A DNA stretch of 58,906 bases from a virus. Taxonomy: Duplodnaviria; Caudoviricetes. Position numbers and translations under genes: made by a program. The notes beneath the pieces were generated by a model, which was not told the DNA's origin, did not search any database, and saw nothing but the letters and a program-made list of their open reading frames with translations. The DNA lies in IMG/VR virus record IMGVR_UViG_3300027779_003675, positions 1 to 58,906 of that record. One strand, given 5' to 3'. Below are positions 957 through 56,894 of the stretch, one piece after another. Positions within the stretch are counted from its first letter, which is position 1. Each line of letters starts with the position of its first letter.

Positions 957-1264
957 GTATTGAATTTACATGGGTACAACGGCGGCCAGCTATTAATGCT
1001 GGGGATGATAATGTGTGCCAATGGTTACTTCATTTGAGAGCGGTAGATGGTGAGGCAGCTTCTTACATTAGCGAGACAGTCGACATAACTAAAGATCAAA
1101 AACCTATAGGCGATTGGCTTCCGGCAGATATAGAGGCAATGAGTGAAGCGTATCGTCGTATAAACAAATGGGATACAACACTAACTTCTGACATAGAAGA
1201 ACAATTGAGTGCACCAAGGACGGTAGATGGCTGGAACGAGGAAACTTTAAGTGTCGATACCTAA
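953..1264 (+). CDS. Hypothetical protein, possibly tail-fibre associated
   Basis: MSIEFTW start resembles small proteins commonly found after phage fibre genes; overlaps its neighbours. Confidence 0.55.
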   Translation: MSIEFTWVQRRPAINAGDDNVCQWLLHLRAVDGEAASYISETVDITKDQKPIGDWLPADIEAMSEAYRRINKWDTTLTSDIEEQLSAPRTVDGWNEETLSVDT

Positions 1265-1889
1265 AGTTATTCATCAAGTTTGGGGCGGGCCGATGCCGTT
1301 GGGGATACAGGAGTGTCTGGATTCCGTGAAACGGGTCATGCCCGATTATGATGTGGTGGTTCACAAGAAAGAAGATATGGACGAGCTAGTGCCGGAACAG
1401 TTCAGTTTAGTGGAAAGGACTAATCTTTATCGCAACCGACTGTTATATTCCCAAGGAGGATGGTGGGTGGATGCTGATTGTTACGTCTTGCGGCCATTTA
1501 ATTCAGACCAATCTTGCTCATTTGGGACACAAGAGAGGTCGACTAATTATACCCCTCCGTTGGTGGTGGATTGGGCCTTCGGCTCTGAAGCGGGAAACCC
1601 AGACCTAGTTGGGGTTCTAAGGCGTCTAGCTCCATCAGTATTAAACCGAAGATCTAGTTCAGGGCAAACTACCGAAATGTTACCGTTGGGTGAGCATATG
1701 GCTAAGGAGTTAGGGGGTAAAAAGCTCGAGCCATGCCATGTTTACGGTAGTAGAAGATTTTCCCATAGGAAACCTAGTAAAATGATACAGCGAGACGCTA
1801 CATTAGTTCATTTATTTTTAGGCTCGTGGTACGCTAAAGACTGGAGAAACGGCGTTATAGACAAAGTAAAAGAAGTGGAGAAGTGGTAA
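1251..1889 (+). CDS. DxD glycosyltransferase (GT32/OCH1-like)
   Basis: IPKVIHQVW, LLYSQGGWWVDAD, HLFLGSW motifs. Confidence 0.85.
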   Translation: MSIPKVIHQVWGGPMPLGIQECLDSVKRVMPDYDVVVHKKEDMDELVPEQFSLVERTNLYRNRLLYSQGGWWVDADCYVLRPFNSDQSCSFGTQERSTNYTPPLVVDWAFGSEAGNPDLVGVLRRLAPSVLNRRSSSGQTTEMLPLGEHMAKELGGKKLEPCHVYGSRRFSHRKPSKMIQRDATLVHLFLGSWYAKDWRNGVIDKVKEVEKW

Positions 1890-1891
1890 AT

Positions 1892-4075
1892 TCAATATCT
1901 CCAGTTTATAATTCCATAGTCATGCCTGTTGTCGGCGTGAAATAAAACTCTCTTGTATCCTAGGTTTTTGACAAAAGATATATCTGCGTCCCCTTTTTCA
2001 TTATAGGGGTTCGGGTTATCTTCTATAATTTTTCTTTTTATAAGATAGCACGCTCCGACAAAAGGTACAGTCCAGCATTTTTTATCTTTCCTTTCTAGGA
2101 TGTCGAAATAATTATCGGACTGTTTGTAATATCCGCTTTCGGAGAAAGCTCCCCAAAAATTAGACTGATTAGAAACTTTTCCGTTTATTGTCTCTCTTAA
2201 GACCGGAGCTACTACGTTTTTGTTTGTTTTTATTAGCTCGTTGAGGGTTTCTGGATTTCTCAACAAGCAAAGGTTCTCTATATAAAAGTGGTAATCGTAA
2301 TTGTAGTTAAGGGACTCTTTAAATATTCGATTTCTTTTTGGCCCTTCGCGCTCATTTGTTGGGCTGTATAACACCTCTTTGTAATCGTTAACGTCTATAG
2401 CTTCTTTTATGGTTTTTAGTTTATCTTGAGAGTCTTCTATATGGAGTATTATATTGGATTTAGGAAAGTTGAGATCTCTAACGTAGTTGAAGAACTTCCC
2501 CCAATTAGCGCTATCTAAGTTAGAGACGCAGTAAAGAGAAATATAAACAATAGGATTGTCTATAAGTTTACCAGTTGGTGAAAATGAAAAATCAGAGCTC
2601 CAACCTTTAGTTAGGTAATTGGATAAAGCCCAAAACTTTTCCTTACTAGAGTTTCCGTGCGCCACCAACGGTCTCGTGTTAGTGACCGTGTTATGCAGTC
2701 TTCCTCCTTCGATTGTTACGTCGTCGTAGGACCACCCCAAGCATTGAAAAATTTCACATTTGTAATCTAAAGAAATCAACCTCTTGTGTCTTCCGTTTAG
2801 GAATTCGAGGGTATAGTATAGTTGGTCGTCCGATATGTTAGGTAAGCTGTCATCCTTGGCTCGTTGAGTTATTTTACTTAAGTCTTTAGCGTAACCTATG
2901 AAGGATCCTGAGTTTAAGTATCTATAGTGATAAGGAGACTCTGGGTATCTGTTAGCTAAGGACCTGTCGGGCCAACAAGACTGTTCCGCCGCAAACAAGG
3001 TGGGAATGTTTTTCGATAGAAATAACTCTACGATACGTTTCAAGCTATCTAAGAATAAAATATCATAGCCATCCACAAATAGAACTATGGCGTTAGGGTC
3101 TTTTTTTAGCTTTTCTAGCTCTGGGATTAGTAGGTTGATTTTTTGTCCTCCCCCGGGGTCGCTCACCATATCTCCTCCTCCCCAAGGGGAATCTAGCCCT
3201 AATATTTTCAAGGGGATTTCGTTTGCTACCGATGTCCTTATATGTTTTTCCAGACCTTCGTTTAACGCGTTGTCAGCTACCGTGTAGCAGTATATGTTTT
3301 TTTTATATAAGCTTACGCATGAAGTATCTTTCTCTATGTCTGAGTTGTACCCTTGAGGTAAGGCTTGTTGCCAAATTTCGAACTTGCCGAGGTTAGAAGA
3401 TAAAGCTTTTATAACCGGGGTAAAAACTTCAGAAAAATCCTTTCTCCTATGCTTAGTCCAACAGGCGGCTAAGAATTCATCTGGCGTTACTAAGTTTTCT
3501 AATATCTTGGTTGACAGGAGCTTTGAGGCTCCCTCTTTTCCTATAATGTAAGCGTGGGTGTTGTACGAGAAAGCGGGCTTAACAAAAAGTTCTTCTCCGT
3601 CTACTGGCTCTTCTTTATTTTTCGAGACTTTGTTTCTCCCTAAGTAGAGAACATCTGTATCGGGGCATTTGGGTAATGACTTTGTTATAAACTTTTTAAG
3701 TTCGCCGGAATGCCAAAAAGCGTCGTCTTCTAATATAAGGGCTGTTTCGTTTTTCGATACTATCTCTTTCCATAAGTGTAAATGACTCAGAGTGCAGCCT
3801 ATTTCTGGGCTTCTAACTTCTCTGTTGTCCCAGCCGGAAAAATTAAATCCTTGAAAACTGCTAGTTTCAGACGTTTTCCATTTAGGGTAAACTTTACATT
3901 TTTGTTCGAGTAACCAGTGTTGAAGCAGGTTGACATCGATATTCCTAAAATCAAAAGCCTCTACGAACTTTATAGGAACGCAGAGGCCTTCTTCGAGGAG
4001 TAATTTAGATATTCTGTCTTTTTTTTCTCTTCTAGCTTTGAGGTTTAAGACGTATATCCTGTTTATGGAAAGCAT
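1892..4075 (-). CDS. Fusion of a COLGALT-like GT25 domain with PLOD/LH3-like glycosyltransferase and accessory domains (no hydroxylase domain)
   Basis: N-term: IYVLNL, EIGCTLSH, LILEDD, SYNTHAY, TPDEFL, GYNSDIE. Middle: WGGGD, GGGQKI, FVDGYD, AEQSCWP, YLNSGSFIG, DDQLYY, HGN. C-term: SNFWGA, GYYKQSDNY, WTVPFV, DADISF. Confidence 0.88.
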   Translation of the reverse strand: MLSINRIYVLNLKARREKKDRISKLLLEEGLCVPIKFVEAFDFRNIDVNLLQHWLLEQKCKVYPKWKTSETSSFQGFNFSGWDNREVRSPEIGCTLSHLHLWKEIVSKNETALILEDDAFWHSGELKKFITKSLPKCPDTDVLYLGRNKVSKNKEEPVDGEELFVKPAFSYNTHAYIIGKEGASKLLSTKILENLVTPDEFLAACWTKHRRKDFSEVFTPVIKALSSNLGKFEIWQQALPQGYNSDIEKDTSCVSLYKKNIYCYTVADNALNEGLEKHIRTSVANEIPLKILGLDSPWGGGDMVSDPGGGQKINLLIPELEKLKKDPNAIVLFVDGYDILFLDSLKRIVELFLSKNIPTLFAAEQSCWPDRSLANRYPESPYHYRYLNSGSFIGYAKDLSKITQRAKDDSLPNISDDQLYYTLEFLNGRHKRLISLDYKCEIFQCLGWSYDDVTIEGGRLHNTVTNTRPLVAHGNSSKEKFWALSNYLTKGWSSDFSFSPTGKLIDNPIVYISLYCVSNLDSANWGKFFNYVRDLNFPKSNIILHIEDSQDKLKTIKEAIDVNDYKEVLYSPTNEREGPKRNRIFKESLNYNYDYHFYIENLCLLRNPETLNELIKTNKNVVAPVLRETINGKVSNQSNFWGAFSESGYYKQSDNYFDILERKDKKCWTVPFVGACYLIKRKIIEDNPNPYNEKGDADISFVKNLGYKRVLFHADNRHDYGIINWRY

Positions 4076-4084
4076 CTATCTATA

Positions 4085-4852
4085 TTAGCCCAATTTATTG
4101 ATTCTTTCTATCAATTTGAACGTCAGGCTTTTGGGGATGTCCTCTAGCTCCGTGATTCCCTCTGGGTCTTGAACCATCTCCTCTTTAGCTATCTTGCTTA
4201 TGACATCTTCGAAGCTTACTCCTTTTTCTTTCATTTTTTTAGCTAAAAGAAAACTTGGATTAGCCAAAGCGTTCCGCTTTGATTTAACTGAGGCTGGGGC
4301 CGAGGAGCTTCCTGACGATGATGAAGATCCTGACGATGGTGAAGATCCTGACATTTCGTCCCAAGAGACGATGTTAATCTTTAAGAAGTTCCTTACGCAT
4401 CGGCAAAAGGATCTGTTTTCCGCCATTTCAACTAGGTATAGCTTTCCGAATCCATTGGTATTATCTACCGTAGCGGAGCTCATGGACTGAAACGTTACCT
4501 CCCTGTTTTCTGTTTCGTAATTCGGTGTCCATTTTATAGTGCAGGAGGCCGCTGCGTATTCGAGAGATGCAAATTTTATATCGTACCCAACGTCTACGAA
4601 CCCTCTTATTTGGGCGAGATCTTTTATTCCCCCTAAAAGGATTATTAAGTCTCTGTCTTGCAGTTGGCTCACGTCCGTCTCTTGGGTCCTCTGCCTATTC
4701 GGCACTAAAAATTCAGACTTAACCATTTTCCTCCAATCTACTAGTCCGTTTTCTTGGTAAACGTAGTCTAGCCCCTCCGTTAGTCCGTACTCGTTGCGTT
4801 TGATTACCTTGGGAGGAGTGGATTTGCTTGTGGTTTTGGTCTTAGCAGCCAT
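4085..4852 (-). CDS. Putative Rad52/Sak-superfamily single-strand annealing protein
   Basis: EMAENRSFCRCVRNFLKI..DE resembles the Rad52-fold core helix; Ser-rich linker; recombination context. Confidence 0.5.
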   Translation of the reverse strand: MAAKTKTTSKSTPPKVIKRNEYGLTEGLDYVYQENGLVDWRKMVKSEFLVPNRQRTQETDVSQLQDRDLIILLGGIKDLAQIRGFVDVGYDIKFASLEYAAASCTIKWTPNYETENREVTFQSMSSATVDNTNGFGKLYLVEMAENRSFCRCVRNFLKINIVSWDEMSGSSPSSGSSSSSGSSSAPASVKSKRNALANPSFLLAKKMKEKGVSFEDVISKIAKEEMVQDPEGITELEDIPKSLTFKLIERINKLG

Positions 4853-19364: not shown

Positions 19365-20354
19365 TCAATCGTATTTTAGATCGTACTCCCGCTTCCAGTA
19401 ATCAACCATATCTTTAACGAGTGACTTAAAATTGAACTCTGGCTCCCAGTTTAACGCTTTTCTGGCTTTCGCGGAGTCTCCTTTTAACTCTTTGAGTTCC
19501 TCCGGCCTCATAAACTTAGGGTTTTGGACAACGTATTCCTTATAGTCAAGACCTAAACAAGAGAAAGCTTCCTCGCAGAAGTCTCTTACCGTGTGGCTTT
19601 CTTGTGATGAAATTATAAACTCATCAGGCTCGTGGTGCTGTAGTATCTTGTGCATTGCTACTACGTAGTCTTTTGAGTGGCCCCAATCTCTGCTGGCATC
19701 TATGTTTCCTAGCTCGAGTTTAGTTGATAGTTTTTTAGCTATCGAGACTGCGCCTCTGGCTATTTTAGCTGTTACGAAGTTCTCTCCTCTTCTTGGAGAC
19801 TCGTGGTTGAATAGAATCCCGTTAGAGGCAAAAAGGTTGTAAGAGTTTCTATAGTTCCTTACGATGCAGTATGCGGCAAGCTTTGAGCATCCATACGGAC
19901 TCACGGGCTTCATCGCGGTGCTCTCTCTTTGAAATCCATCCTCATCTATCTCGTTTCCAAACATTTCGGAAGAGCTTGCTTGGTAAAATCGAGCTTTTGG
20001 GCATACGCTTCTATAAGCCTCAAGGAGGTTTAGCGTTCCTATCATGTTTGTTTGGAGAGTAAACTGAGGAACGTCAAAACTGATCCTGACGTGGCTTTGG
20101 GCTCCAAGGTTATAAATTTCGTCGGGCTGTATTGTCGCTAGAAGTTTGTATAGCGACGAACTGTCCAAAAGGTCTCCGTAGTCGGTCCTTACTAGGTTTT
20201 TAGAGGTTAAGTGGTCTATTCTCGCTTCTTGGCTTGACGCAAGAGAGTGTCTCCTGATTAACCCGTACACTTCGTAATCTTGCTCTACAAGGCGTTCCGC
20301 TAGGTAGCTTCCGTCTTGACCTGATATTCCTGTAATGAAGGCTTTCTTTTTCAC
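19365..20354 (-). CDS. gmd: GDP-mannose 4,6-dehydratase
   Basis: ITGISGQDGSYL, YNLGAQSHV, FYQASSSE, SPYGCSK, GILFNHESPRRG, RDWGH. Confidence 0.96.
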   Translation of the reverse strand: MKKKAFITGISGQDGSYLAERLVEQDYEVYGLIRRHSLASSQEARIDHLTSKNLVRTDYGDLLDSSSLYKLLATIQPDEIYNLGAQSHVRISFDVPQFTLQTNMIGTLNLLEAYRSVCPKARFYQASSSEMFGNEIDEDGFQRESTAMKPVSPYGCSKLAAYCIVRNYRNSYNLFASNGILFNHESPRRGENFVTAKIARGAVSIAKKLSTKLELGNIDASRDWGHSKDYVVAMHKILQHHEPDEFIISSQESHTVRDFCEEAFSCLGLDYKEYVVQNPKFMRPEELKELKGDSAKARKALNWEPEFNFKSLVKDMVDYWKREYDLKYD

Positions 20355-20389
20355 ATCTTATAATAGTTCTTAGTTCTTGTTTTTTCTGA

Positions 20390-20977
20390 TTATTTTGAGA
20401 AAACAGACATTTCTCTTAGGTCTGGCCAGTCTGAGATTACCCATTTTCTTGGCTCTTCGTTTATGGCTGTTTCTAGTTTCGCTAGCCCAAGTTTAGCTGT
20501 TTCTGGAGTCATGTAATAATGGTAGCCTATAGTTTGTATGTCCTGCTCTCTCCAAGGAACATCTGGGTGCCTTCCGTCGTAGGACATTTTCTTTAAGGTT
20601 TCTGCCGCTTTCTCATTATCCGTTAATATCATTCCTCCTCTGCCAAGGCTTAGGTGTTTTTGGAACTGGAAACTTACGCTCATAAAGGTGTTTGGGACAT
20701 AGCTGTCCTTTTTCCATAGCACTGCGGCGTCTATCACGTTGTAGGTTAGGTAATAATAATCCTCCCAGTCTTCTTCTTTCCAAGTGAGTTCGATGTTTAG
20801 CTTTTTCGCAAGAAACGGGATTGATATGTATGTCCTCGCTGGGACCCCTATGCTGTCTACATTAAATTGTCTTAAGCATAGTTCTATTCCGTGTGTGCAG
20901 CAGTCTACGGCTACTGCGTAAGGGGAACCAAAGAAGTCCGCTATTCTTTCTTCGAACTCCGTTACTATATTAAACAT
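20390..20977 (-). CDS. Short DegT/DnrJ-family PLP sugar aminotransferase
   Basis: FE..IA.F.G..YAVAV, IDAA, SFQFQKHL..GRGGMI. Confidence 0.85.
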   Translation of the reverse strand: MFNIVTEFEERIADFFGSPYAVAVDCCTHGIELCLRQFNVDSIGVPARTYISIPFLAKKLNIELTWKEEDWEDYYYLTYNVIDAAVLWKKDSYVPNTFMSVSFQFQKHLSLGRGGMILTDNEKAAETLKKMSYDGRHPDVPWREQDIQTIGYHYYMTPETAKLGLAKLETAINEEPRKWVISDWPDLREMSVFSK

Positions 20978-21512
20978 TTTTTTTACATTCTACGTTTAGA
21001 CTTATGAGGGTGCCGTTTTCTTTATCCATGTGGGGTAGGTAGGCTTGTGAATGGTCGTCCACGTGGGAGTGCTCCGTGTCTTTCCAGTCGTATAGATTGA
21101 TGTTTCTAAAACCATTTTCAAATAATAAAACCTTTAAGCTATGTTCGTCGTATACTGTTTTGTGGTATATTTTTTCGTCGCCCATGTCCATCCTTCCATA
21201 TAAAGGCCCTAAGAATTTATCTAAGCTTGTAGATGTTTCTACATACATCCTAGCCATGGCTTCGAAGTCGGGCACAGCTAGCCTTAGGGTTCCCTTGGGC
21301 GTCAGGGTTCTTTTCCATTCTTCTAAGATCTCTGAGGCTTCTTCTCTGTCAAAATATTCCAAGACATGGGATGCGTATATTAAGTCTACTGAATTATCGT
21401 CGAAAGGAAGGTCTGTTATCTTACTGGAGTGAAGATGCTTGTGGTTGCCGCCGTCTATATGGGTCCAGCTTTTGCCAAAGTTTCTTTTTCCGCAGCCTAG
21501 GTGAAGTTTCAT
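20970..21512 (-). CDS. SAM-dependent methyltransferase (type 11)
   Basis: LHLGCG, LPFDDNSVD.IYASHVLE, LAVPD. Confidence 0.88.
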   Translation of the reverse strand: MKLHLGCGKRNFGKSWTHIDGGNHKHLHSSKITDLPFDDNSVDLIYASHVLEYFDREEASEILEEWKRTLTPKGTLRLAVPDFEAMARMYVETSTSLDKFLGPLYGRMDMGDEKIYHKTVYDEHSLKVLLFENGFRNINLYDWKDTEHSHVDDHSQAYLPHMDKENGTLISLNVECKKNV

Positions 21513-21946
21513 TCTATAAAGGTTTTGTCTAGCTCTTGGCCTAAATAAGGTCCTGTTTTAAACTCGTAGACGAAGGTGTTGGGTGAGGCGGCTAGGTAGT
21601 TGTGTCCTCCCCTGAAGGTCATAGAGAGGTCTCCCGCATTTAGGGTCTCTTCAGATATAATTGAATCATCTAGGTCATAAAGGGTAGCTATAACGCTGCC
21701 GCTTAAAACAACCCAAGATTCCTGAGCTATGTTTGTTGTCTTTTCGTGGGTTATGTGCTTGTGAGCCTTGAAGGTCTTGCCTGCGTTCATTTGCAGTACG
21801 GCTGCTTGTAGGAATTCTCCTTTTGGAGCTATGTCTATTCTCCCCCCTTCCGCTTTAGCTTGAAGTGCTACCATTTCGGGGTCGTCAATTCTGTTTACTA
21901 TATGCAGTAGAGTTCCGGGTTCTATTTTTGAGAATATTTTTTTCAT
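21509..21946 (-). CDS. Cupin-fold protein (WbuC-like)
   Basis: HKH..QESWVVLSG, GGH, EFKTGPY. Confidence 0.75.
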   Translation of the reverse strand: MKKIFSKIEPGTLLHIVNRIDDPEMVALQAKAEGGRIDIAPKGEFLQAAVLQMNAGKTFKAHKHITHEKTTNIAQESWVVLSGSVIATLYDLDDSIISEETLNAGDLSMTFRGGHNYLAASPNTFVYEFKTGPYLGQELDKTFIE

Positions 21947-21957
21947 TTTTTTTTATT

Positions 21958-22884
21958 CTACGACAAAGGTAAGACTGATTCGTCTGGGTAGAGATATCCG
22001 TTCAGCCACTCTATGACGTCCCCGCTTGGCTCCCATCCTAGCAGCCTTTTTGCCTTTGAGTTGTCGGCTAGGGTAACCTTGGGTTCTATTCTTGACTCTA
22101 AATAATCCACAGCTTTCGTTGCTGGGTGCTTTTTAAAAACTTCGGATATTTGATTAATGCTTCTGTTGTCTCCGTTTCCAATATTAAAAGATTCGCCAGA
22201 TACTCCTTCCGTGGTTGCTGCTAGTATGTTTGCCTGCACAACGTCTCGTACGTATGTGAAGTCTCTTCTTTGTTCTCCGTCTCCAAATATAGTAAGGTTT
22301 TTGCCTTCTCTAATTTGTTGAATGAATTTACCTATAACCAAACAGTAAGCCCCTTCTGTCGGAGCGTTTTCTCCGTAAACGTTAAAATATCTTAGGCTTA
22401 CGGTTTCTATATCGTGAATTTCTGAATATAGTTCGCAATACTGTTCCCCTATGAGTTTCTGTAGTCCGTAAGGGCTTAGGGGTTTCTTGGGCGCTGTCTC
22501 TGGGGTAGGAAAGGTTTCTGTATCTCCGTATATAGAAGAAGAGGAACTGAATACAAATCTTTTTACCCCTTGGTGCCTGCACATTTCCAGCAAGGACAAG
22601 GTCCCTTCTACGTTTGCTTTGTTAAACTCTACTGGATGCTCTATAGAGGGCTGAACTCTGGCTTTAGCTGCTAGATGAAAGACTGCGTCTACTCCGTCCA
22701 GAGCTTCCATTATTTTATTATTGTAGTTGCCGCCAGATATATCTGCGTAGACAAAGTGATACTCATCTCTAAGGGGGAAGTCTCCCGCTAGATCTACAAC
22801 CGTTACCTCGTGCCCATCTTTAACTAGCCTGTTAACGAGGTGTGTTCCTATGAATCCGTGTCCGCCTGTTACTAAGTATTTCAT
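21958..22884 (-). CDS. NAD-dependent nucleotide-sugar epimerase
   Basis: VTGGHGFIG, FHLAA, SSSS, SPYGLQK, LRYFNVYG, RDFTYV. Confidence 0.93.
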   Translation of the reverse strand: MKYLVTGGHGFIGTHLVNRLVKDGHEVTVVDLAGDFPLRDEYHFVYADISGGNYNNKIMEALDGVDAVFHLAAKARVQPSIEHPVEFNKANVEGTLSLLEMCRHQGVKRFVFSSSSSIYGDTETFPTPETAPKKPLSPYGLQKLIGEQYCELYSEIHDIETVSLRYFNVYGENAPTEGAYCLVIGKFIQQIREGKNLTIFGDGEQRRDFTYVRDVVQANILAATTEGVSGESFNIGNGDNRSINQISEVFKKHPATKAVDYLESRIEPKVTLADNSKAKRLLGWEPSGDVIEWLNGYLYPDESVLPLS

Positions 22885-23675
22885 GATTTTCTCAAAGTTT
22901 TATTTCTTTCCCAAGCGGCCTGCATGACCATAGGGTTTATGTCGTTTCTTTTAAATAGTTCGATTAAGGCGTTTAAATCCTTAGGGAAACATTTTCCTCC
23001 GAAGCCCGGTTGTCCGTCTGGTCCGGGAACGTCTATGTGCGAATCGCCTATTCTTGAGTCACTAGTGAACCCTTCTATCAATTTTCCCCAGTCGCCCCCG
23101 ACTTTGTCTGATAGCATTTTTAATTCGTTCATGAAGGAAACTTTTGTGGCAAAAAAGCAATTCAATGCATACTTTATCAGCTCTGAAGTTACGGTGTCTG
23201 TTATAGTATACTTCATGGAGTTGAATCTTTTTTCGTATAGGCTTTTGATTTTGTTGGCGCTGTCTGGGTTGTCGGAACCTATCAATATTTGAGCGGCGTT
23301 TATGAAGTCCCACTTAGCCCTTCTTTCGGTAAGAAATTCTGGGTTAGACGAGATCTTTAGTCCGTATTTTTCTGTCATTTTGCGACAGGTGCCGGGAAGT
23401 ACTGTTGACTTTACGATTATCTCTTGGTTTCTTGGGGGTTTCTCGCTTAAGTGTTTGAATATACTTTCGACTATAGAAAGGTCGCAGGTCCAGTCTTCAT
23501 TGGGGGGAGTTGGAACGCATACAAACAAAAAGTCTGTATCTATGGTTTCTGAAAAAGAATGAGTTGAGGCTTTAGGGTCTGTGTCGTAGACCTTTACGTC
23601 GTGGACCGGGCGAAGCCCCCATGCCGTTGCCGATCCTACAAACCCTCCTCCTATAATTCCTATTGAATGGTTCAT
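22881..23675 (-). CDS. ugd: UDP-glucose/GDP-mannose 6-dehydrogenase family, lacking the C-terminal domain
   Basis: IGGGFVG, CVPTP, KSTVLPG, NPEFL, GFGGKCFPKD. Confidence 0.88.
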   Translation of the reverse strand: MNHSIGIIGGGFVGSATAWGLRPVHDVKVYDTDPKASTHSFSETIDTDFLFVCVPTPPNEDWTCDLSIVESIFKHLSEKPPRNQEIIVKSTVLPGTCRKMTEKYGLKISSNPEFLTERRAKWDFINAAQILIGSDNPDSANKIKSLYEKRFNSMKYTITDTVTSELIKYALNCFFATKVSFMNELKMLSDKVGGDWGKLIEGFTSDSRIGDSHIDVPGPDGQPGFGGKCFPKDLNALIELFKRNDINPMVMQAAWERNKTLRKS

Positions 23676-24646
23676 AAAACTTTTTCCAAGAATTGCTTAA
23701 CCCTGTGAGAAGTAGTGTGCCTCTCTTTCACTAAATTATAGCAATTTTGGGCTAGTTTTTCTTGGTCGAATTCATCTATGGAGTTAAATATATAGCTAGG
23801 ATCGACGCCCCTTTTGAAAAGAACGCAGTTCTTACCGTCAACAAAACCGTTAATTTCCATTTCTTTGCCTAGGTCTGGCGAGATATTTATTGATTTAGCT
23901 AGGCCTGACTCAAAGTATCTTGGCACCATCCTTCCGTTGGTCCCCCCGTCATGGGGGCCGAACTTAGAAGACAAGAGGTTGTTGGCGTAATCTTCGTTAG
24001 TTATCGTCCCTTCTGTCCATCCTTCCCCGAAGGTGTTTACAACCTTGTGGGTTGAGCAGTCGTTTTGGAGTATCTGGTTAAATACGTACCTATATTGATA
24101 CTCGGGCACTACGGCACCGCTAAGAAAAAAGTCTATGTTCTTTTTTTTGTTATGCTTGTGTGAGTCAAATTCCTCAGAAGACCAACAGGGCCAATGAAAA
24201 AACGGGACACTGGGGAATAGGCTTTTCATAAAATCTAAATTAAATAAATAATTATGAAATACGCCAGAAAAGTTTACCTTATGGGATCTATCGCTAAACT
24301 CCATTAGCCTAGCGTCCTCTCTACTTGTCGCCGAGTCGGTTAAAACAAAATATACCTTAGACTTAAGCTTCGTTAGGTCTGAAGATTTAAATCTCGCGTC
24401 CCATATAAAGATAATATCAGGTTCATCAAGGGTAGTTTCCTTTATTATTTCGTAAATATCCTTTTCGTCTAAAGCGCTAGATTCTCTTCTGTTGGTGTGC
24501 TCGTGTCTTCCTGACTTAGAAAGATAGTCCGTATGAGAAAAATAAACTTCCTTGTGTATGGAGGGGAAGACCGTCTCAAAGTCCCAGTAAGATCTAAGCC
24601 GGTAGTTTAAGCAGGATTTTTTTATTACTAGTATTTTTTTAGACAT
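23672..24646 (-). CDS. Glycosyltransferase (CgeB-like GT-B)
   Basis: FLSG..Y.YR, Y..L..SK, PRYFE, GFVDG.N, HT..HR. Confidence 0.65.
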   Translation of the reverse strand: MSKKILVIKKSCLNYRLRSYWDFETVFPSIHKEVYFSHTDYLSKSGRHEHTNRRESSALDEKDIYEIIKETTLDEPDIIFIWDARFKSSDLTKLKSKVYFVLTDSATSREDARLMEFSDRSHKVNFSGVFHNYLFNLDFMKSLFPSVPFFHWPCWSSEEFDSHKHNKKKNIDFFLSGAVVPEYQYRYVFNQILQNDCSTHKVVNTFGEGWTEGTITNEDYANNLLSSKFGPHDGGTNGRMVPRYFESGLAKSINISPDLGKEMEINGFVDGKNCVLFKRGVDPSYIFNSIDEFDQEKLAQNCYNLVKERHTTSHRVKQFLEKVL

Positions 24647-25342: not shown

Positions 25343-25777
25343 TTATAGTATATAATCAGTGCATACCGCTGCGCAGTTGTAGTTTTTTTCTTTCCAGTCT
25401 GAACCTTTGTGAACTATAACAGAGTTCTTAGTGACTTCCTCTTCCGGAAAGGTCCAAATATAGCCTTTCGAAGTTATTGTGAATTTGTCCGTTTCGTGCC
25501 AGAAGCAGTGAATTCCATAATAAAGCATACTTTCTAGAGCGGGTAGGTTTTTTGCGTGGCACCAAATTTTTTCATTTTCCAAAAAAGTTTTATCAATCGG
25601 GTAGGTGGGTTTGTCGTGTCCAAGTGAAAAATGGCCGTTTACATACCAAACATCTGCTTCGCAGTGATAACTTTTTGACAGTGCTTTTTTTATTTGAGCT
25701 GGGTGGTTTTCTGATTCAAGTTTTGGTCCGTCTAGGTTGCCTCTGTGGGAAATTTTAATCATTTTGATTTTCCCCAT
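25343..25777 (-). CDS. Short glycerophosphodiester phosphodiesterase-like protein (start probably at the second Met)
   Basis: ISHRGN..EN, CEADVW, GHD, WCHAKN, VCTD. Confidence 0.75.
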   Translation of the reverse strand: MGKIKMIKISHRGNLDGPKLESENHPAQIKKALSKSYHCEADVWYVNGHFSLGHDKPTYPIDKTFLENEKIWCHAKNLPALESMLYYGIHCFWHETDKFTITSKGYIWTFPEEEVTKNSVIVHKGSDWKEKNYNCAAVCTDYIL

Positions 25778-26949
25778 TTTTCTATTGCTTCGTAGTATTC
25801 TTTACCAAGGGTGTTATCTATTGCTTGCCTCATTGCTTTTGACCCGCCTAAGGTTCCCGACGGGTGTCCGTGAAGAGCTCCCCCCACGTTCGCCATATAA
25901 TTTATTCCAAATTTTTCTGTAACTTTATTAACTAATCCGGGATGCATTCCGCAGGAAAGAGCAGGCATAACATTGTGCTTGTGAAGAACGTCTATAACCT
26001 CTTGTAGGTCTTTTTCGTCATCGCTTGCATAACCTCCCCACATGCCCGAATGAATAAAGTCTACCCCCATTAGCCCCGCTAATCCACAAATCACAGACCA
26101 ATCTATTCCAAAGCGATGCTGGGTATCGGTTATTACTTTGTCTCCGCTTTTTTGAAAATGAATAAAAAGAGGAAGATCAAGTTTTCTTAGCGAATTGTAT
26201 ACCCCTAACCCTGACCAGATGTTGACATGGACAGCGTTCCCTCCTAGTTGGTGGACTAGCTCTGCCCTTTTAAGTACAGAATGATGATCGCCGTTAATGC
26301 AAAAAGCGTATACAACATTTGGGTTTTCAGCTCTTAGATATTGAGAAATTATCCTCACTCTATCTTCTAGGGGGCAGAAAGATGGGTTGGATAATATCTC
26401 GTCTTCTTTGATAAAGTTTACCCCTCCTTCTGCGAGCTGTTTTACCATCTCGAGCAAAATTTCTGGAGATATTCCTGTTTTGGGTTTTATTATTCCTCCT
26501 AAAATAGGTTTATTATGTACTTTTGTGAAATTTCTGATTCCCTCAATTCCGTATTTTGGCTTCAGAAAGAACTCCTCTTTTATTTTTCGGGGGACTTTGA
26601 GCTCTGTTAGCCTGCATTTAGTTATACTGTCGATGTCCATCTGCCCTCCCATTAATTGGCAGAGCAAGTGGGAGATGCCGTCACCTTCCCAGTCGGTGTT
26701 GATTGTGGGGAAGCCTATCTCTACCGTTCCAGACCTTACGGAAGAGAGGGTGTTCTCGTTACCTTTTATTATGCATGAGTGTTTTTCGAAAAGCTCGTCA
26801 GATTCCCAAGAATTTCTTACGTTTGGGTTGCCGACGCTTTGTCCTATGGCTAAATTCCAACTTGCGTCTTTTAGTGATACGGAACTCTCTAGCTTGTAAG
26901 TAGCTATAGTGTACCTATCTTCGTCTATGTTTTCTTTAAATAGTTTCAT
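25759..26949 (-). CDS. RuBisCO-like protein (form IV RLP)
   Basis: PKYGIEG.R, IIKPKTG, GGVNFIKEDE, GVDFIH, SCGMHPG, GGALHGHP; lacks E60/H294/K334 equivalents. Confidence 0.9.
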   Translation of the reverse strand: MKLFKENIDEDRYTIATYKLESSVSLKDASWNLAIGQSVGNPNVRNSWESDELFEKHSCIIKGNENTLSSVRSGTVEIGFPTINTDWEGDGISHLLCQLMGGQMDIDSITKCRLTELKVPRKIKEEFFLKPKYGIEGIRNFTKVHNKPILGGIIKPKTGISPEILLEMVKQLAEGGVNFIKEDEILSNPSFCPLEDRVRIISQYLRAENPNVVYAFCINGDHHSVLKRAELVHQLGGNAVHVNIWSGLGVYNSLRKLDLPLFIHFQKSGDKVITDTQHRFGIDWSVICGLAGLMGVDFIHSGMWGGYASDDEKDLQEVIDVLHKHNVMPALSCGMHPGLVNKVTEKFGINYMANVGGALHGHPSGTLGGSKAMRQAIDNTLGKEYYEAIEKWGKSK

Positions 26950-41335: not shown

Positions 41336-41503
41336 ATGGCACCATTCAGAAAAAAAGATAAATATTATGTTGTCCTATCCGAAAAGAGAAATTATACTCA
41401 AGGGGCTTTTGAGCACTCCCCAAACGGATACGAGAAAGCCATAGCGTACGTTAGAAGAATAGAAAGAAAGACTTCAGAAAAATATTACATTCTTGAGAAG
41501 TAA
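41336..41503 (+). CDS. Small hypothetical protein (55 aa, not in ORF track)
   Basis: MAPFRKKDKYYVV...; TAATG coupling to the next gene. Confidence 0.65.
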   Translation: MAPFRKKDKYYVVLSEKRNYTQGAFEHSPNGYEKAIAYVRRIERKTSEKYYILEK

Positions 41504-42747
41504 TGAACAAAACGAAACGCGCGAAAAGCAAAGCCAAAAAAGTCAAACATTCCCCGAAAAACGATCCGAAGACAGTGGACTATATACTGTGTCTCACTAT
41601 GATCGTAAAGAATGAATCCAAGATCATAAAGAGATGCCTTGATTCTGTTAAAGACCATATAGACTATTGGGTTATAGTCGACACGGGTTCAACCGACGGA
41701 ACACAAGATATAATTAAAAAACACCTTGACGGTATCCCCGGGGAACTGCATGAAAGCGAGTTCGTAAATTTTGGGTATAACCGAACTGAGTCACTAAAAC
41801 TATCTAAAGGTAAAGCGGAATATACACTTTTAATGGACGCTGACTTAGAGCTTAAAGTAATGAACCTTGACTTTAAGGAAGAGTTGATAAAACAAAATAA
41901 AGACGGGTACCTCCTAATTGAATGCTCGGGCTTAAACAAAGACGGATCATATAAGGGCTTCAGCTATAGGAACAGAATAGTCTTAAGAAACAGCCTAGAC
42001 TGGGTTTTCAAAGGGTCAACCCACGAGGTAGTAGACCTAAAAGAAGGCGAACCTAACTGTTTAATATATGACGGAATCTGGATCCACAACAGATACGATG
42101 GAGGGAGCAAGTCCGAAAAATATACCAGAGATATTAGACTTTTAAAAAAAGACCTAGAAGACGACCCAAACAACGACAGGGCAATGTTTTACCTAGGTGA
42201 AAGCTATATACATCTAGCCGAACAAGAGGGAATAAACAGAGAAGACCTAAGGTGCGTTGAATTACTGCGAAACGCAACCAAATGGTACAAAAAAAGGTCA
42301 GAGATGAAAGGCACTTGGCCTCAGGAAATTTATTACTCTCTATTCAAAATGGCTCAAGCCAAGACGTATCTAAGCGGGCAAATAGATATCTTGGGATACC
42401 TTAAGGCTTACAACTTCAAACCTTCTCGCCTAGAACCTATTGAAAAAGTGCTCCGACACTGTAGGGAAAACGAATTATACAACATAGGATATATGTTGGG
42501 TAAGGCCGCTATAGACAACGAAGAAAAACTAGAAGACGACGCGCTATTCGTTGACGGGGACGTCTACCTATACGAAATGCTTGACGAGTTTTCCATTTGC
42601 GCGAGTTGGTCAGGGAACAATAGAGAAGCCGTAAAGGTAATGGAGAGCATTATCCCTAAAATAGAAGGAGAGGTAGAAAAAGAGACCGAAGATAGGATAA
42701 AAGAAAATTTAAAAATTTGTAGAGAACTGCTATCCAAGAACGTATAA
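41503..42747 (+). CDS. GT2 glycosyltransferase with TPR repeats
   Basis: LTMIVKNE, VDTGSTDGT, LMDAD, THE, RAMFYLGESY. Confidence 0.88.
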   Translation: MNKTKRAKSKAKKVKHSPKNDPKTVDYILCLTMIVKNESKIIKRCLDSVKDHIDYWVIVDTGSTDGTQDIIKKHLDGIPGELHESEFVNFGYNRTESLKLSKGKAEYTLLMDADLELKVMNLDFKEELIKQNKDGYLLIECSGLNKDGSYKGFSYRNRIVLRNSLDWVFKGSTHEVVDLKEGEPNCLIYDGIWIHNRYDGGSKSEKYTRDIRLLKKDLEDDPNNDRAMFYLGESYIHLAEQEGINREDLRCVELLRNATKWYKKRSEMKGTWPQEIYYSLFKMAQAKTYLSGQIDILGYLKAYNFKPSRLEPIEKVLRHCRENELYNIGYMLGKAAIDNEEKLEDDALFVDGDVYLYEMLDEFSICASWSGNNREAVKVMESIIPKIEGEVEKETEDRIKENLKICRELLSKNV

Positions 42748-53085: not shown

Positions 53086-53265
53086 ATGAAAAGTTTAGAG
53101 AAAAGGGTTTTTATTTGTTTTGTTATAGTTGTTATTGCTATATTTTTTACTGGCTGCAGTACCACTAAGTGGGAATGGATACCAAAGGAACAGCCTAACC
53201 CAAAAACCAAGCACGAAAAAGAGACCGGCGTAATTAAGGTCAACGTTTTAAAAGTTTCGTTTTGA
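53086..53265 (+). CDS. Small putative lipoprotein (start reassigned to after the tRNA)
   Basis: Hydrophobic stretch then FTG-C. Confidence 0.55.
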   Translation: MKSLEKRVFICFVIVVIAIFFTGCSTTKWEWIPKEQPNPKTKHEKETGVIKVNVLKVSF

Positions 53266-54080
53266 TAGATAAGGTATTTATAATAAGCCTAGAGAAAGAT
53301 AAGCCTAGGAGGGACAGGCTGCTTTCCTTAATTAAGTCTGAATCTGACAAAAGCCTAATAGAAAAAACGTCACTTATAAAGGGAGTACATCACGCCCAAA
53401 TAAACGAAAAGTTTCTATCGGATAATAATTTCGACTACTATAAGGACTGGGTTCTAACAGAGGCTCAATGCGACGAAATCGCAAGCCAATACCCCAACGA
53501 AGAAGGGCACAGCATAGGACGTTCTCCTTGTGAAAGATTTTACAGAACCCCTCTCAAGAATGGGCAGATTTGTTGCCTTATCGGCCATATTCAGTGTTGG
53601 AGGCAAATAGTGCATAAAGGGTATGATAGCGCCCTTATACTTGAAGATGACTCTTGGTGGACCGGATGCTTAAGTAGCGAGCTTGAATATTTGAAAAATC
53701 TAAAACTTCAAGAAAACAATATCGACTTTTGCTTTTTGGGTAGAGAGCCTCACCTAGATAGACTGGAGTCGGATTGGGCGGTAGACCCAAAATACGTGAT
53801 CCCTAATTATAGCTACAATAGCCACAGCTATATCTTGACTTACCAAGGAGCAATCAAACTGCTTTCTCAAGAGCCACATAAAAAACTAATGAGTGCTGAC
53901 GAATTCCTTGGAGCTTCTTACTGTTATCACCCTAGGTCCGACTTGAGAGACTTAATAAAAACAAACCTCAACGCTATAGCAGTAAATTATCCTAGCGACG
54001 AACGTAGCGGAAATCAGCTAATTTATCAAGCTACCGGCTACGAAACGGGCCACGAAGGAATAAGTCACACTAATATATAG
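53262..54080 (+). CDS. COLGALT-like GT25 glycosyltransferase
   Basis: VFIISL, Y..PL..G.I.C..GH..W, LILEDD, YSYNSHSYILTYQGA.KLL..EP..KLM..DEFL...HP. Confidence 0.85.
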   Translation: MIDKVFIISLEKDKPRRDRLLSLIKSESDKSLIEKTSLIKGVHHAQINEKFLSDNNFDYYKDWVLTEAQCDEIASQYPNEEGHSIGRSPCERFYRTPLKNGQICCLIGHIQCWRQIVHKGYDSALILEDDSWWTGCLSSELEYLKNLKLQENNIDFCFLGREPHLDRLESDWAVDPKYVIPNYSYNSHSYILTYQGAIKLLSQEPHKKLMSADEFLGASYCYHPRSDLRDLIKTNLNAIAVNYPSDERSGNQLIYQATGYETGHEGISHTNI

Positions 54081-54098
54081 CGTAAAACTAAGCGTCCA

Positions 54099-55016
54099 AT
54101 GAAACCCAAAATACTTTTAATTGCAGACGTAAGGGATTGGATATTCCAAAGGCACTGTTATTATATCTCTGAAATACTTGGGGATGACTTTATTTTTAAC
54201 GTCTCTTACCATAGAGAAAATTACGGATACCACTTTGACGAAGACGCCTACGACTTAATATACCCTTTAGAGTTCAATCTGCTCCACCCGCAAAAGGAAG
54301 TAAACTATAAAAAATACATAACAGGTATAAGGTCTCACTCTTCGTGGTCGGGCTGGGAAGACAAAGAGCAACTAAAAAAATACTTAGAATCTAGGTTCTC
54401 ATTAACTCACGTCGTCTCTAACGAACTTGGTAGGATTTTTTCAAAACTCCTGCATCCCCACTGTTACGCGGGGGTCGTGCAGCACGGAGTAGACTCCAGC
54501 CTTTTTAAGCCCCGTTCTAACCCTAGGATAAGCGAAGGCGTATTAGATATAGGATGGGCAGGAAACAGGCAAGCCGCTTCAAACAAAGGGTTCGATAGTA
54601 TAATAAAACCCTTGGAAAACCTAAAGAACGTTAGGTTGAATTTTTGTGGATACTCGGATAATAATTTAAGCAAAGAAGGGATGTCGGATTTCTATAGATC
54701 TATAGACACTTATATTTGCGCCTCAATCGAAGAAGGGCACAACAACTCTTTAATTGAAGCGGCTTTCACCGCCAACTCTATCGTAACCACTGTTAACGGA
54801 ACCGTTCCTGAATATTTAAAGCATGAAGAAAGTGCCCTTATAGTTAACAGAGATCCGTCTTCTTTCGTTTCAGCTGTGAAAACCTTAAGGGACGACCCAA
54901 ACTACAGAGCGGTTATCGGCGAAAACGCTAGAGTTTCGGCTGTCAGCAAATTTGATTGGAACGCAAAAGCTATCGACTATAAAAACATGTTCGAAATGGC
55001 CCTGAATGAACTTTAA
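54099..55016 (+). CDS. GT4 glycosyltransferase
   Basis: HGVD..F, IGWAG, KG, S.EEG..SLIEA, FDW. Confidence 0.85.
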   Translation: MKPKILLIADVRDWIFQRHCYYISEILGDDFIFNVSYHRENYGYHFDEDAYDLIYPLEFNLLHPQKEVNYKKYITGIRSHSSWSGWEDKEQLKKYLESRFSLTHVVSNELGRIFSKLLHPHCYAGVVQHGVDSSLFKPRSNPRISEGVLDIGWAGNRQAASNKGFDSIIKPLENLKNVRLNFCGYSDNNLSKEGMSDFYRSIDTYICASIEEGHNNSLIEAAFTANSIVTTVNGTVPEYLKHEESALIVNRDPSSFVSAVKTLRDDPNYRAVIGENARVSAVSKFDWNAKAIDYKNMFEMALNEL

Positions 55017-55719
55017 AGATATAACCAATTTAGCCGAAGAGGTGGTATGCATCTCCCTAAGAGACAGAAAAGACAAAAGGGACAAATTTGAAGAAAGGTG
55101 GAAAGGTGTTTTAGACTTCAGGTGGTTTATCGCCAACAGGCCCACGGAGGAAACCCTTAAGCAGTTTTTAAGGAATTTTAATGGAGGCAACCCAGAGAGC
55201 CTTAGCGAAATGGCTATTGGCAGGTGGGGGTGTTACCTTTCTCACTACGAGGTAATATCTTCAGCCCTAGTGAGAGGCGTAGAGTCTATACTTATACTCG
55301 AAGACGATAGTCACCCCGATAAAAACCTCATGAACCTACAAGTCAATAGCGTACCTCCGGATTGGGACGTTATCTACCTAGGCTGCAACGACTACGACAC
55401 CATAAGCTCCCATCCCAGCACAAACCATACAACTGACCTTACTTGGACGGATTCGAATTCCTTAATGAACTTTAACGGATGGAAGAGGGTTAAGGCTTGG
55501 GGGACTTACGCAATGCTGATTAATAAAACGGCTTTTAAACCGTTCCTTAGAGAAATTAACGACTACACCTCCCTAGGGTACCAGTACAATCACAACATTA
55601 ACGGTATAAGGGCTGACGGCATATATTATTTTTACCTTTGGAAGAAAATGAGTTTTTACTTTTGTGAAAACTTTGTTTCTCACGACTATTCTTTTGAATC
55701 TGACATCCAAGAGGTGTAA
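55006..55719 (+). CDS. GT25 glycosyltransferase
   Basis: CISL..R.D, GCYLSH, LILEDD, P.DWD.IYLG, GTYA. Confidence 0.85.
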   Translation: MNFKDITNLAEEVVCISLRDRKDKRDKFEERWKGVLDFRWFIANRPTEETLKQFLRNFNGGNPESLSEMAIGRWGCYLSHYEVISSALVRGVESILILEDDSHPDKNLMNLQVNSVPPDWDVIYLGCNDYDTISSHPSTNHTTDLTWTDSNSLMNFNGWKRVKAWGTYAMLINKTAFKPFLREINDYTSLGYQYNHNINGIRADGIYYFYLWKKMSFYFCENFVSHDYSFESDIQEV

Positions 55720-55720
55720 T
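55714..55720 (+). promoter_or_regulatory. GTGTAAT motif (candidate phage-sigma promoter)
   Basis: GTGTAATATAAACATATG; nearly identical to CTGTAATATAAACGTATG at 34918-34935 (-). Confidence 0.55.
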
Positions 55721-55728
55721 ATAAACAT

Positions 55729-56037
55729 ATGGAAGAAGCAGCACAAAGCTTTATAGGTAAACAGGGTTGGCTTTTCGCGGTTGGCGTTTTAGCTATCGTT
55801 TTTAATAGCTTAATCTCCAGCAGTGCGCAAGGAGTACTACTTTGGTGGAGTAAGCAGTACCAACCAGACGACATTGTCTTTGTCGGAGGCAGGAAGGCTA
55901 GAATCGTTAGGATCGGAATGAGGGAAACCGTCTTTTATTTCGAAGACACCTCCACTAAAGTTACGATCCCTAATGAAAACATAAGAGGAATGGGTATAGA
56001 AAAAGAAATAAGACCCATGAATTTCAGTAAAAAATAA
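55729..56037 (+). CDS. Mini MscS-like protein (TM plus beta domain)
   Basis: D.V.V.G..A.I..IG.R.T...V.IPN. Confidence 0.7.
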   Translation: MEEAAQSFIGKQGWLFAVGVLAIVFNSLISSSAQGVLLWWSKQYQPDDIVFVGGRKARIVRIGMRETVFYFEDTSTKVTIPNENIRGMGIEKEIRPMNFSKK

Positions 56038-56367: not shown

Positions 56368-56413
56368 AATGTAGACAAACGCGGGTCCGGGGCTTATTAT
56401 TTTTATAAGGAGT

Positions 56414-56836: not shown

Positions 56837-56859
56837 GCAACCCTCTCCATTAGGAAACA

Positions 56860-56892
56860 GCGCTCCTTTAACTAGGGGCGTTTTCTTTATTT
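56860..56892 (+). terminator. Intrinsic terminator
   Basis: GCGCTCCT/AGGGGCGT stem plus a T-rich tail. Confidence 0.65.
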
Positions 56893-56894
56893 AA

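Follow-up and report, generated by a model that had tools for sequence, protein, structure and literature searches.

To our knowledge, glycosylation of hydroxylysine (Hyl) is regarded as a hallmark of collagen in animals, and mimivirus as the one outlier. In humans, the lysyl hydroxylase (LH) LH3 and ColGalT1 are reported to form a complex (KOGG, PDB 8zgc) in which GalT-N, a domain without catalytic function, and an N-terminal loop make the contact (PMC11897130). Mimivirus contributes two characterised proteins. R699 (PDB 9dyt), which has a glycosyltransferase (GT) domain and an accessory (AC)-like domain, glucosylates galactosyl-Hyl (Gal-Hyl) and is described as having no action on glucosyl-Hyl (Glc-Hyl) (PMC9546862). 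L230 carries a GLT25D1-like part and PLOD-like parts on a single chain, acts on viral collagen, and is reported to make Glc-Hyl rather than Gal-Hyl (PMC9614988, PMC9546862). A paper on the crystal structure of GLT25D1 mentions giant-virus and bacterial BLAST matches and suggests ancestral gene fusions (PMC12003778), and a 2022 review describes prokaryotic collagen-like proteins as mostly without hydroxylation or glycosylation, and phage collagens as very short (PMC8968730). We analyse here the virus record IMGVR_UViG_3300027779_003675 of IMG/VR (58,906 bases, classed as linear, completeness estimated at about 36%; 'the window' means this whole stretch of DNA), in which one open reading frame (ORF) at positions 1892-4075 of the minus strand encodes a protein, P0001, that joins a GT25 domain of the COLGALT catalytic type to GT and AC domains of the PLOD type.

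In our judgement P0001 is probably a bifunctional glycosyltransferase, from a large marine phage, which acts, together with a separately encoded hydroxylase, on Hyl residues of the phage's own collagen-like fibre. The human complex gathers the same three activities in one assembly, with a reversed partition: the phage splits off the hydroxylase and links the galactosyltransferase-type domain covalently, and both GalT-N and the N-terminal contact loop of the human complex are absent from P0001. R699, a protein of a giant virus of amoebae, has the same GT and AC-like two-domain body and shares nine functional residues with P0001, but lacks a GT25 domain. L230 resembles P0001 as a viral single chain but holds its hydroxylase in that same chain. 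The first-pass annotation of the window had stressed that in animals these consecutive steps lie on separate polypeptides; that is so, and because human LH3 and ColGalT1 associate physically, its Rosetta-stone logic holds. We found no paper on a GT25 and PLOD-GT fusion in phages, in a literature search that did not extend to supplements; the supplementary BLAST figures of PMC12003778 may list viral hits.

Results

One reading frame joins COLGALT-type and PLOD-type domains

The frame that encodes P0001 is unbroken from ATG to stop, and its start lies 9 nucleotides past the stop of the preceding gene (4085-4852; Table 1). The N-terminal part belongs to the Pfam family Glyco_transf_25 (PF01755; residues 6-188, E 2.3e-18, 67.3 bits against a cut-off of 24) and the middle part to GT_PLOD (PF25342; residues 258-494, E 4.9e-65, 219.6 bits against a cut-off of 27). 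In a sequence search of the PDB, residues 264-722 aligned with chain positions 19-491 of human LH3, which cover its GT and AC domains (E 6.7e-58), and residues 282-722 aligned with mimivirus R699 (E 1.9e-54). With the N-domain alone as query, the best match of residues 81-218 among solved structures was human COLGALT1, in its C-terminal GT25 domain (E 3.4e-16), whereas the solved bacterial GT25 enzymes and mimivirus R655 reached only E 0.03-0.2.

An AlphaFold2 model of P0001, built with 32 relatives, is confident (mean predicted local distance difference test score 87.0; predicted template modelling (TM) score 0.82). Foldseek matched this model to LH3 (E 4e-44 over about 485 aligned columns) and to R699 (TM 0.86 on the target); the best fold match of the N-domain was COLGALT1 (E 5e-17, 254 columns), whereas the bacterial GT25 beta-1,4-galactosyltransferase 8xlz reached only E 5e-8 with a root mean square deviation of 9.5. 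These scores lie far beyond chance. It is thus confirmed, by Pfam, PDB search and AlphaFold2 with Foldseek, that the ORF joins a COLGALT-type GT25 catalytic domain to PLOD GT and AC domains, as the first-pass annotation had proposed; the motifs that it had quoted (SYNTHAYII, GA.KLL, LV.PDEFL and GY.SD.E) all occur in the translation and align with COLGALT1 rows.

Table 1. The fusion gene, its domains and other features of the window (positions are those of the window; aa, amino acids)
Feature	Position	Strand	Evidence or context
Fusion gene, P0001, 727 aa, GT25 + PLOD-GT + AC	1892-4075	-	Pfam, PDB search, AlphaFold2, Foldseek
N-terminal GT25 domain, COLGALT catalytic type, aa 1-252	3320-4075	-	Pfam, PDB alignment, family alignment
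PLOD-type GT (glucosyltransferase) domain, aa 258-494	2594-3304	-	Pfam, R699 alignment
AC domain, aa 500-724	1904-2578	-	Alignment with LH3 (AC region) and with R699 (C-terminal half)
Stand-alone PLOD-type lysyl hydroxylase, 232 aa	39013-39711	+	Own LH profile (E 2e-42); PDB LH domains
3' part of collagen-like fibre gene, cut at contig end	1-588	+	Tail-fibre PHROG (E 2.4e-12); convergent to fusion gene, 1.3 kb
Stand-alone GT25 paralogue, 272 aa	53262-54080	+	Own GT25 profile; S-Y-N-x-H motif as in P0001
Third GT25-family gene, divergent, 237 aa	55006-55719	+	Own GT25 profile
255-aa protein, no recognised family	4085-4852	-	Upstream of fusion gene, same operon
GT9-like protein, 405 aa	4862-6079	-	Upstream, same operon as fusion gene
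GT1-like protein with DUF4214, 635 aa	6079-7986	-	Upstream, same operon as fusion gene
Small DXD-type glycosyltransferase	1251-1889	+	In fibre gene operon; just under the cut-offs of Caps_synth (24.3 bits) and Gly_transf_sug (18.5 bits)
GalE-like nucleoside diphosphate (NDP)-sugar epimerase	21958-22884	-	TIGR01179 176.4 bits, below curated cut-off of 262.3

Functional residues of the GT and AC domains

In the numbering of PMC12279948, which equals that of chain 9dyt_A minus 3, nine functional residues of R699 (K62, E114, W118, N138, D162, D163, Q164, H216 and N218) are all present in P0001, as K312, E364, W368, N388, D416, D417, Q418, H473 and N475. The D-x-x-D motif of the PLOD GT domain is formed by D335 and D338, and it and the nine R699-matching residues are invariant or nearly so among 32 family members. 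The PF25342 score, the D-x-x-D motif and the R699 residues together characterise the domain as a putative collagen Gal-Hyl glucosyltransferase. The R699 equivalent of E364, E114, is proposed to bind the acceptor and is reported to be needed for acceptor glucosylation and not for hydrolysis of uridine diphosphate (UDP)-glucose (PMC12279948).

In the AC domain, P0001 has I-E-N-L-C where LH3 has Asp-Ala-Asp; this lack of the acidic motif fits a non-catalytic role. The chain stops after AC, with LH on a separate ORF, and P0001 accordingly does not amount to a whole PLOD/LH3 protein.

Functional residues of the GT25 domain

We calibrated COLGALT1 numbering by adding 27 to that of chain 9evj_A, which reproduces C412, D436, D437, K470, Y494, W495, D522 and E523 as named in a cryo-EM study of GLT25D1 (PMC12987934). 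P0001 keeps C412 (as C94) and Y494 (Y171). The acidic pair that serves metal and UDP, D436/D437, corresponds to D117/D118 within the motif E116-D117-D118; the catalytic base D522 corresponds to D199, and E523, the proposed anchor of the Hyl amine, to E200. Among the 32 family members H98, E116-D118, Y144 and D199-E200 are invariant. A Glu equivalent to E523 is found in the viral and the animal rows, whereas the six chromosomal bacterial GT25 rows displayed keep only the Asp. Furthermore, G-Y-N-S-D-I-E of P0001 aligns with G-Y-x-S-D-T-E of the COLGALT1 rows of frog, toad, sea cucumber and tapeworm, and may be a lid loop equivalent to that of human residues S569, D570 and T571.

The acceptor cleft differs. 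From the COLGALT1 set K470/Y494/W495 only the Tyr is kept; the other two positions are Asn in P0001 (N148, with K149 adjacent, and N172), and these are sites at which mutation is reported to abolish (W495A) or much reduce (K470A) activity (PMC12987934). Most fused members of the family keep the Y-W pair. N172 is invariant in the clade closest to P0001 (49-82% identity), and the same Asn variant recurs in the stand-alone GT25 paralogue of the window.

P0001 also departs from whole COLGALT proteins in that its GT25 domain begins at residue 1, without GalT-N, so that it does not qualify as a whole COLGALT1/2 orthologue; in animal COLGALT proteins an AC-like domain precedes GT25.

Affinities of the GT25 domain

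The first-pass annotation's case would have suffered if the N-domain had grouped with the ordinary GT25 enzymes of lipopolysaccharide (LPS) synthesis. Searched against 1.84 billion representatives, the N-domain gave 1,660 matches at E <=1e-3, with animal COLGALT1 among the top 150. We classified 148 of these 150, leaving out P0001 itself and P0019: 89 are stand-alone GT25 proteins, 25 GT25-LH, 18 have the COLGALT layout and 16 are other (11 of them with PLOD-GT). The named members with the COLGALT layout are animal COLGALT1 or GT25 proteins of frogs, sea cucumber, tapeworm and ostracod. The best N-domain match (P0167; 947 aa, 40% identity), which JGI labels autotransporter O-heptosyltransferase, carries GT1, GT25 and GT9 in one chain; in the window these three families are the separate neighbouring genes of the GT25 fusion, the GT9-like and the GT1-like protein.

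As a contrast set we used 16 chromosomal GT25 genes, drawn from 301 sampled genomes (30 of which matched) of the class of one Arenicellales metagenome-assembled genome (MAG), a class that we take to be Gammaproteobacteria. Against a profile of the viral fused GT25 domains, animal COLGALTs matched along the full length of the model with 204-228 bits, and the 16 chromosomal genes with 44-105 bits, the latter matches mostly ending by about position 190 of 232, before the lid region. A maximum-likelihood tree of the GT25 domain (115 rows) places the 16 bacterial rows to one side of a short branch with poor support (31), and its animal and AC-GT25 rows make up a clade (support 99) that is nested in a set of 47 rows (support 95) with most fused forms. 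The P0001 clade lies outside this 47-row set, and thus outside the animal clade, beside stand-alone viral GT25 proteins that include the window's paralogue; its GT25 domain does not appear to be the family member nearest to animal COLGALT. The GT-domain tree (68 rows), on the other hand, puts the P0001 clade with other GT25-GT-AC proteins, and animal PLODs (support 97) with four-domain viral forms and R699-like proteins. Both trees were quick, with support from SH-aLRT (the Shimodaira-Hasegawa-like approximate likelihood ratio test) only and with long branches, so their finer placements carry little weight. Profile scores, the GT25 tree, the Glu and lid-like motif, and Foldseek agree in separating the N-domain from chromosomal bacterial GT25 enzymes, in a comparison set without named LPS enzymes.

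These results bear on the idea that P0001 modifies envelope glycans of the host (LPS or O-chain), for example to block superinfection. Pfam does describe the family as 'LPS biosynthesis protein', and the JGI label of relatives is 'GR25 family glycosyltransferase involved in LPS biosynthesis'; O-chain modification has been proposed for pelagimyophage glycosyltransferases of the hypervariable region that holds the tail fibres (PMC7029224), and genes of kinds that are typical of glycan synthesis are present in the window (Gmd-like, GalE-like, NDP-sugar dehydrogenase, aminotransferase and methyltransferase). Bearing in mind, however, that the viral GT25 profile favours animal COLGALTs, that the Glu after the catalytic Asp and the lid-like motif are common to animals and not to the displayed bacterial rows, that each functional residue of R699, a proven collagen Gal-Hyl glucosyltransferase, has its match in the GT domain, and that relatives fuse a protein-lysine hydroxylase and adjoin collagen-like genes (see below), we consider an envelope target very unlikely. 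This evidence points to the fibre itself, rather than LPS, as the target of this phage glycosyltransferase family.

A second alternative is that only one of the two transferase domains acts on Hyl as we propose, the GT25 domain of the P0001 clade having changed its acceptor or donor, such as to a different residue or sugar, or having become a scaffold like the N-terminal domain of COLGALT1. It would be in keeping with the Asn residues at the K470 and W495 equivalents and with further differences at the tentatively mapped positions of H560, Y561 and T562; L230, with its Glc-Hyl product (PMC9546862), offers a parallel, and the different placement of the clade in the GT25 and GT trees hints at a replaced or fast-evolving N-domain. 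Set against this, the metal/UDP motif, the catalytic base, E200 and the lid-like S245-D246 are invariant across the clade, which suggests that the GT25 domain is active. The S-Y-N-x-H variant is itself conserved and common to a clade of stand-alone enzymes. E364 is kept as well, and the acceptor with which R699 was tested is galactosyl-Hyl (PMC12279948, PMC9546862). We therefore hold the loss or change of one activity to be unlikely, and prefer the reading in which both domains of P0001 act in turn on Hyl.

A stand-alone lysyl hydroxylase in the same record

Four domain profiles, made from the alignment of the relatives and run over all frames of the window, revealed a stand-alone hydroxylase and the two further GT25 genes (Table 1). 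The first-pass annotation had recognised the fusion, which stands, and had missed this hydroxylase. Pfam scans of the record with PF13640 and PF03171 found no oxygenase, and the gene surfaced only with the LH profile taken from fused relatives. Its product matches the solved LH domains of human LH3 (E 3e-22) and mimivirus L230 (6ax6; E 3e-17), and the residues for iron and 2-oxoglutarate (2OG), H161-x-D163, H207/H209 and R219, are invariant among 22 aligned sequences, as expected of a lysyl hydroxylase; 14 stand-alone relatives are 59-78% identical to it. A complex prediction for the GT and AC domains (residues 258-727) with the hydroxylase scored 0.07, where the mark was 0.32, and may be taken neither for nor against binding. 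Relatives of P0001 carry a hydroxylase on the same chain, which ties the transferases to a protein-lysine pathway.

A lysine-rich collagen-like gene beside the fusion gene

We defined a collagen-like ORF as one with at least 10 G-X-Y triplets in runs of at least 3, the longest run being at least 5; one such ORF is found in the window, the fibre fragment that faces the fusion gene (Table 1). It encodes 15 lysines, 11 of them in G-x-K-G sites, and ends with a non-collagen domain; its G-X-Y runs are short (longest, 6 triplets) and broken by 6-residue spacers, and its relative in locus L100 has longer runs. A Y-position Lys followed by Gly is the reported consensus for lysyl hydroxylase and COLGALT1 (PMC12987934).

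The P0001 clade conserves this arrangement. In all four loci that have at least 850 nucleotides of downstream sequence, namely the window and, from metagenomes, L100 (82% identity), L103 and L104 (about 50%), a collagen-like ORF that is convergent with the gene and carries 5-18 G-x-K-G sites lies 3-1882 nucleotides past its 3' end; clade loci L101, L102 and L105, with 0-765 nucleotides downstream, stand outside this count. All four contigs end within collagen-like repeats, which evidently break short-read assembly, so that the fibre gene has never been seen whole. ORFs of the same sizes as the window's 255-aa and 405-aa genes also lie upstream in L100, L103 and L104. In the cultured Roseobacter phage CRP-6, gp58 comes after a fibre gene with a Pfam Collagen match of E 3e-46.

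A second short collagen-like ORF (56414-56836, plus strand) has G-A-T/G-x-T triplets with Thr in the Y position and no Lys. It adjoins a LicD and cytidylyltransferase fusion (56895-57920) and lies downstream of GT25, GT1-like and GT25-like genes (53262-55719); the region 53262-57920 may be a second fibre-modification cluster with other chemistry.

Could the target of the enzymes be something other than the adjoining fibre, such as a different protein of the virion, or one of the host, that has G-x-K-G or similar sites? Of the fibre gene the window has no more than a fragment, the collagen-like ORF with G-A-T repeats sits beside other transferases, and most GT25-GT-AC proteins have no collagen-like gene in their flanks (see below). 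The synteny in every informative locus of the P0001 clade, and the 11 sites in the fragment at which a Y-position Lys precedes Gly as in the COLGALT1 consensus, speak against such a target, which we judge highly improbable. We thus continue with the neighbouring fibre as the preferred substrate.

A putative pathway and the points against it

In the pathway that we propose, the stand-alone hydroxylase would turn the Y-position Lys of G-x-K-G into 5-hydroxylysine. The GT25 domain, inverting and using Mn and a UDP-sugar, would then add a first hexose onto the Hyl hydroxyl, with D199 as base and E200 holding the Hyl amine. The PLOD-type GT domain, retaining like LH3 and R699, would add glucose to this first sugar, with the AC domain as a non-catalytic scaffold. 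We infer which protein is the substrate, which sugars are added (Gal, then Glc), how the steps follow one another and any hand-over between the sites; the sugar order leans on the reported action of R699 on Gal-Hyl and not Glc-Hyl, and on the need for E114 in acceptor glucosylation. The GalE-like epimerase encoded in the window could be a source of UDP-Gal.

Several points weigh against this pathway. As set out above, the GT25 acceptor cleft lacks the K470 and W495 side chains, and the Asn in the place of the latter is a fixed feature of the clade. Since L230 adds glucose to Hyl, a Gal-then-Glc order for P0001 can be proposed only by inference. The hydroxylase gene is 35 kb from the fusion gene, and its product scores 26.0 bits with Pfam 2OG-FeII_Oxy_3, just below the cut-off of 27. 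The fibre ORF is a fragment and scores 21.5 bits with Pfam Collagen, below the cut-off of 27.2, and for 26 of the 32 unique GT25-GT-AC proteins the flanks show no collagen-like ORF. Other glycosyltransferases and enzymes of sugar-nucleotide metabolism are plentiful in the window, which makes other glycan targets possible. For this gene the pathway would rest on sequence, model and synteny. We nevertheless find the functional reading of the fusion plausible, and better grounded now that the hydroxylase, the candidate substrate gene, the synteny and the conservation of residues can be joined to it.

Spread and architectures of the family

The fusion does not stand alone: P0001 belongs to a large, modular family of marine viruses. 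A word-indexed protein search returned 405 clusters at E <=1e-5 among 7,999 candidates scored. A scan for related loci with P0001 as a single sequence found no relatives, whereas alignment-based scans found them in 548 of 577 candidate stretches of IMG/VR, in 196 of 392 metagenome stretches (with the clade alignment), and 13 times in 64 stretches, at 12 loci, from prokaryotes (one genome per species, 185,579 species); each stretch scan rests on two short peptide patterns, and these counts are therefore lower bounds.

The bacterial loci, some of them in MAGs titled Arenicellales, Poriferihabitaceae and Porisulfidus, are thus few, and they are linked to collagen: 9 of the 12 have a collagen-like ORF, and 9 have a separate hydroxylase-like ORF, which in 8 is directly upstream of the fusion gene. 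This answers the first-pass annotation's concern that the architecture might be common in bacteria with no link to collagen. Eight loci (L089, L091-L095, L097 and L098; MAGs titled Arenicellales, Porisulfidus, Gammaproteobacteria and Alphaproteobacteria), on chromosomes of 1.8-4.7 Mb, are apparent operons in which a GT25-GT gene accompanies a stand-alone LH and one or more collagen-like genes.

We took a census of architectures over 176 loci (the window, three cultured phages and 172 other loci), in which collapsing identical proteins left 140 unique ones; ORFs cut by contig ends fall into shorter classes, for example L101 and L102, which are counted as GT-AC. The commonest architecture is GT25-GT-LH, with 69 unique proteins, 43 of which have a collagen-like ORF within 2 kb. 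It is followed by GT25-GT-AC (32 proteins; 6 with such an ORF, those of the window, L100, L103, L104, L029 and L031), GT-AC (14; none), GT25-GT (12; 8), GT25-GT-AC-LH (8; 2) and GT25-GT25-GT-AC-LH (3; 3), with 2 proteins of other architectures (none). For GT25-GT-LH, the collagen-like ORF is upstream in 33 of the 44 proteins that have at least 3 kb of upstream sequence. Pfam agreed with the profile-assigned architectures for the three cultured-phage proteins and 10 others.

The three GT25-GT25-GT-AC-LH proteins (1137-1140 aa; L012, L016 and L026, all from IMG/VR) lie directly downstream of collagen-like ORFs; those of L016 and L026 exceed 1000 aa and contain 40-74 triplets and 12-23 Lys at the Y position, and that of L012 is cut by the contig end. 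At another twelve loci (L008, L019, L022, L028, L106, L113-L116 and L123-L125), a GT25-GT-AC gene comes immediately after a tandem pair of stand-alone GT25 genes, which makes three GT25 domains in a row; these loci have no collagen-like ORF in their flanks.

Cultured carriers of the family are the Synechococcus phages S-CAM9, S-8S53/55/56 and S-PRM1 and Roseobacter phage CRP-6, in which the gene is downstream of tail-fibre genes and, in the cyanophages, also comes after two small 2OG oxygenases. Like P0001, S-CAM9 gp218, S-8S55 WLW37668, the S-PRM1 protein and CRP-6 gp58 hold GT25 and GT_PLOD on one chain; they differ in their length (589-621 aa) and in having a C-terminal hydroxylase domain instead of AC, and are 27-34% identical to P0001 over 54-59% of it. 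These homologues are annotated as hypothetical or as 2OG-Fe(II) oxygenase, and the fusion family is also already contained, under-annotated, in PHROG phrog_61.

Genomic context of the window

The genes of the window are closely packed, and include phage-family matches for a DnaE-type polymerase, a DnaB-like helicase, a primase, a UvsX-like recombinase and ribonucleotide reductase, together with three tRNAs; judged by the gene families present, the record appears phage-like. A search among cultured phages found no near-identical DNA, and the window's polymerase, at most about 32% identical to theirs, likewise lacks a close relative among them.

About a dozen glycosyltransferase-like genes are spread over the window. 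A run of sugar-nucleotide genes on the minus strand (19365-24646) comprises a Gmd-like dehydratase (384.5 bits, cut-off 415), a DegT-type aminotransferase, a methyltransferase, the GalE-like epimerase, an NDP-sugar dehydrogenase and a GT1-like gene. A 396-aa protein like the RuBisCO large subunit (25759-26949, minus strand; Pfam RuBisCO_large, 134.7 bits) lies amid clustered sugar-nucleotide and methyltransferase genes; its best NCBIfam matches, type III RuBisCO and methionine-salvage enolase, are both well below their cut-offs. A GT2 protein (41503-42747, plus strand) has as its best NCBIfam match the SunS family of S-glycosyltransferases that act on peptides (66.6 bits, a long way short of the cut-off, 350), and is a further candidate protein or peptide glycosyltransferase.

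Discussion

P0001 is one member of a large, under-annotated viral family for which L230 and R699 are characterised giant-virus precedents. We also entertain, tentatively and with some doubt, a wider proposal: that phages, in addition to animals and giant viruses, run the full course from Lys to Hyl, hexosyl-Hyl and glucosyl-hexosyl-Hyl on their own fibres within bacterial cells, with freely shuffled GT25, GT, AC and LH domains, that the animal LH3/COLGALT system is one fixed arrangement out of an older modular pool, and that the P0001 clade represents a new acceptor or sugar specificity. The many domain combinations recorded here form a comparative set for the origin of the animal LH3/COLGALT complex.

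The family has potential as a source of tools for recombinant collagen, in that its single-chain enzymes would naturally be at work in bacterial cytoplasm; for the production of recombinant collagen in glycosylated form, those of mimivirus have been put forward before (PMC9546862). As to the viruses themselves, hundreds of marine viral contigs, and cultured phages too, have the whole enzyme set next to fibre genes that are long, collagen-like and rich in Lys. If these fibres are truly modified, the glycosyltransferases of phage tail-fibre regions would gain a new reading, and Hyl glycosylation would extend to the viruses of bacteria.

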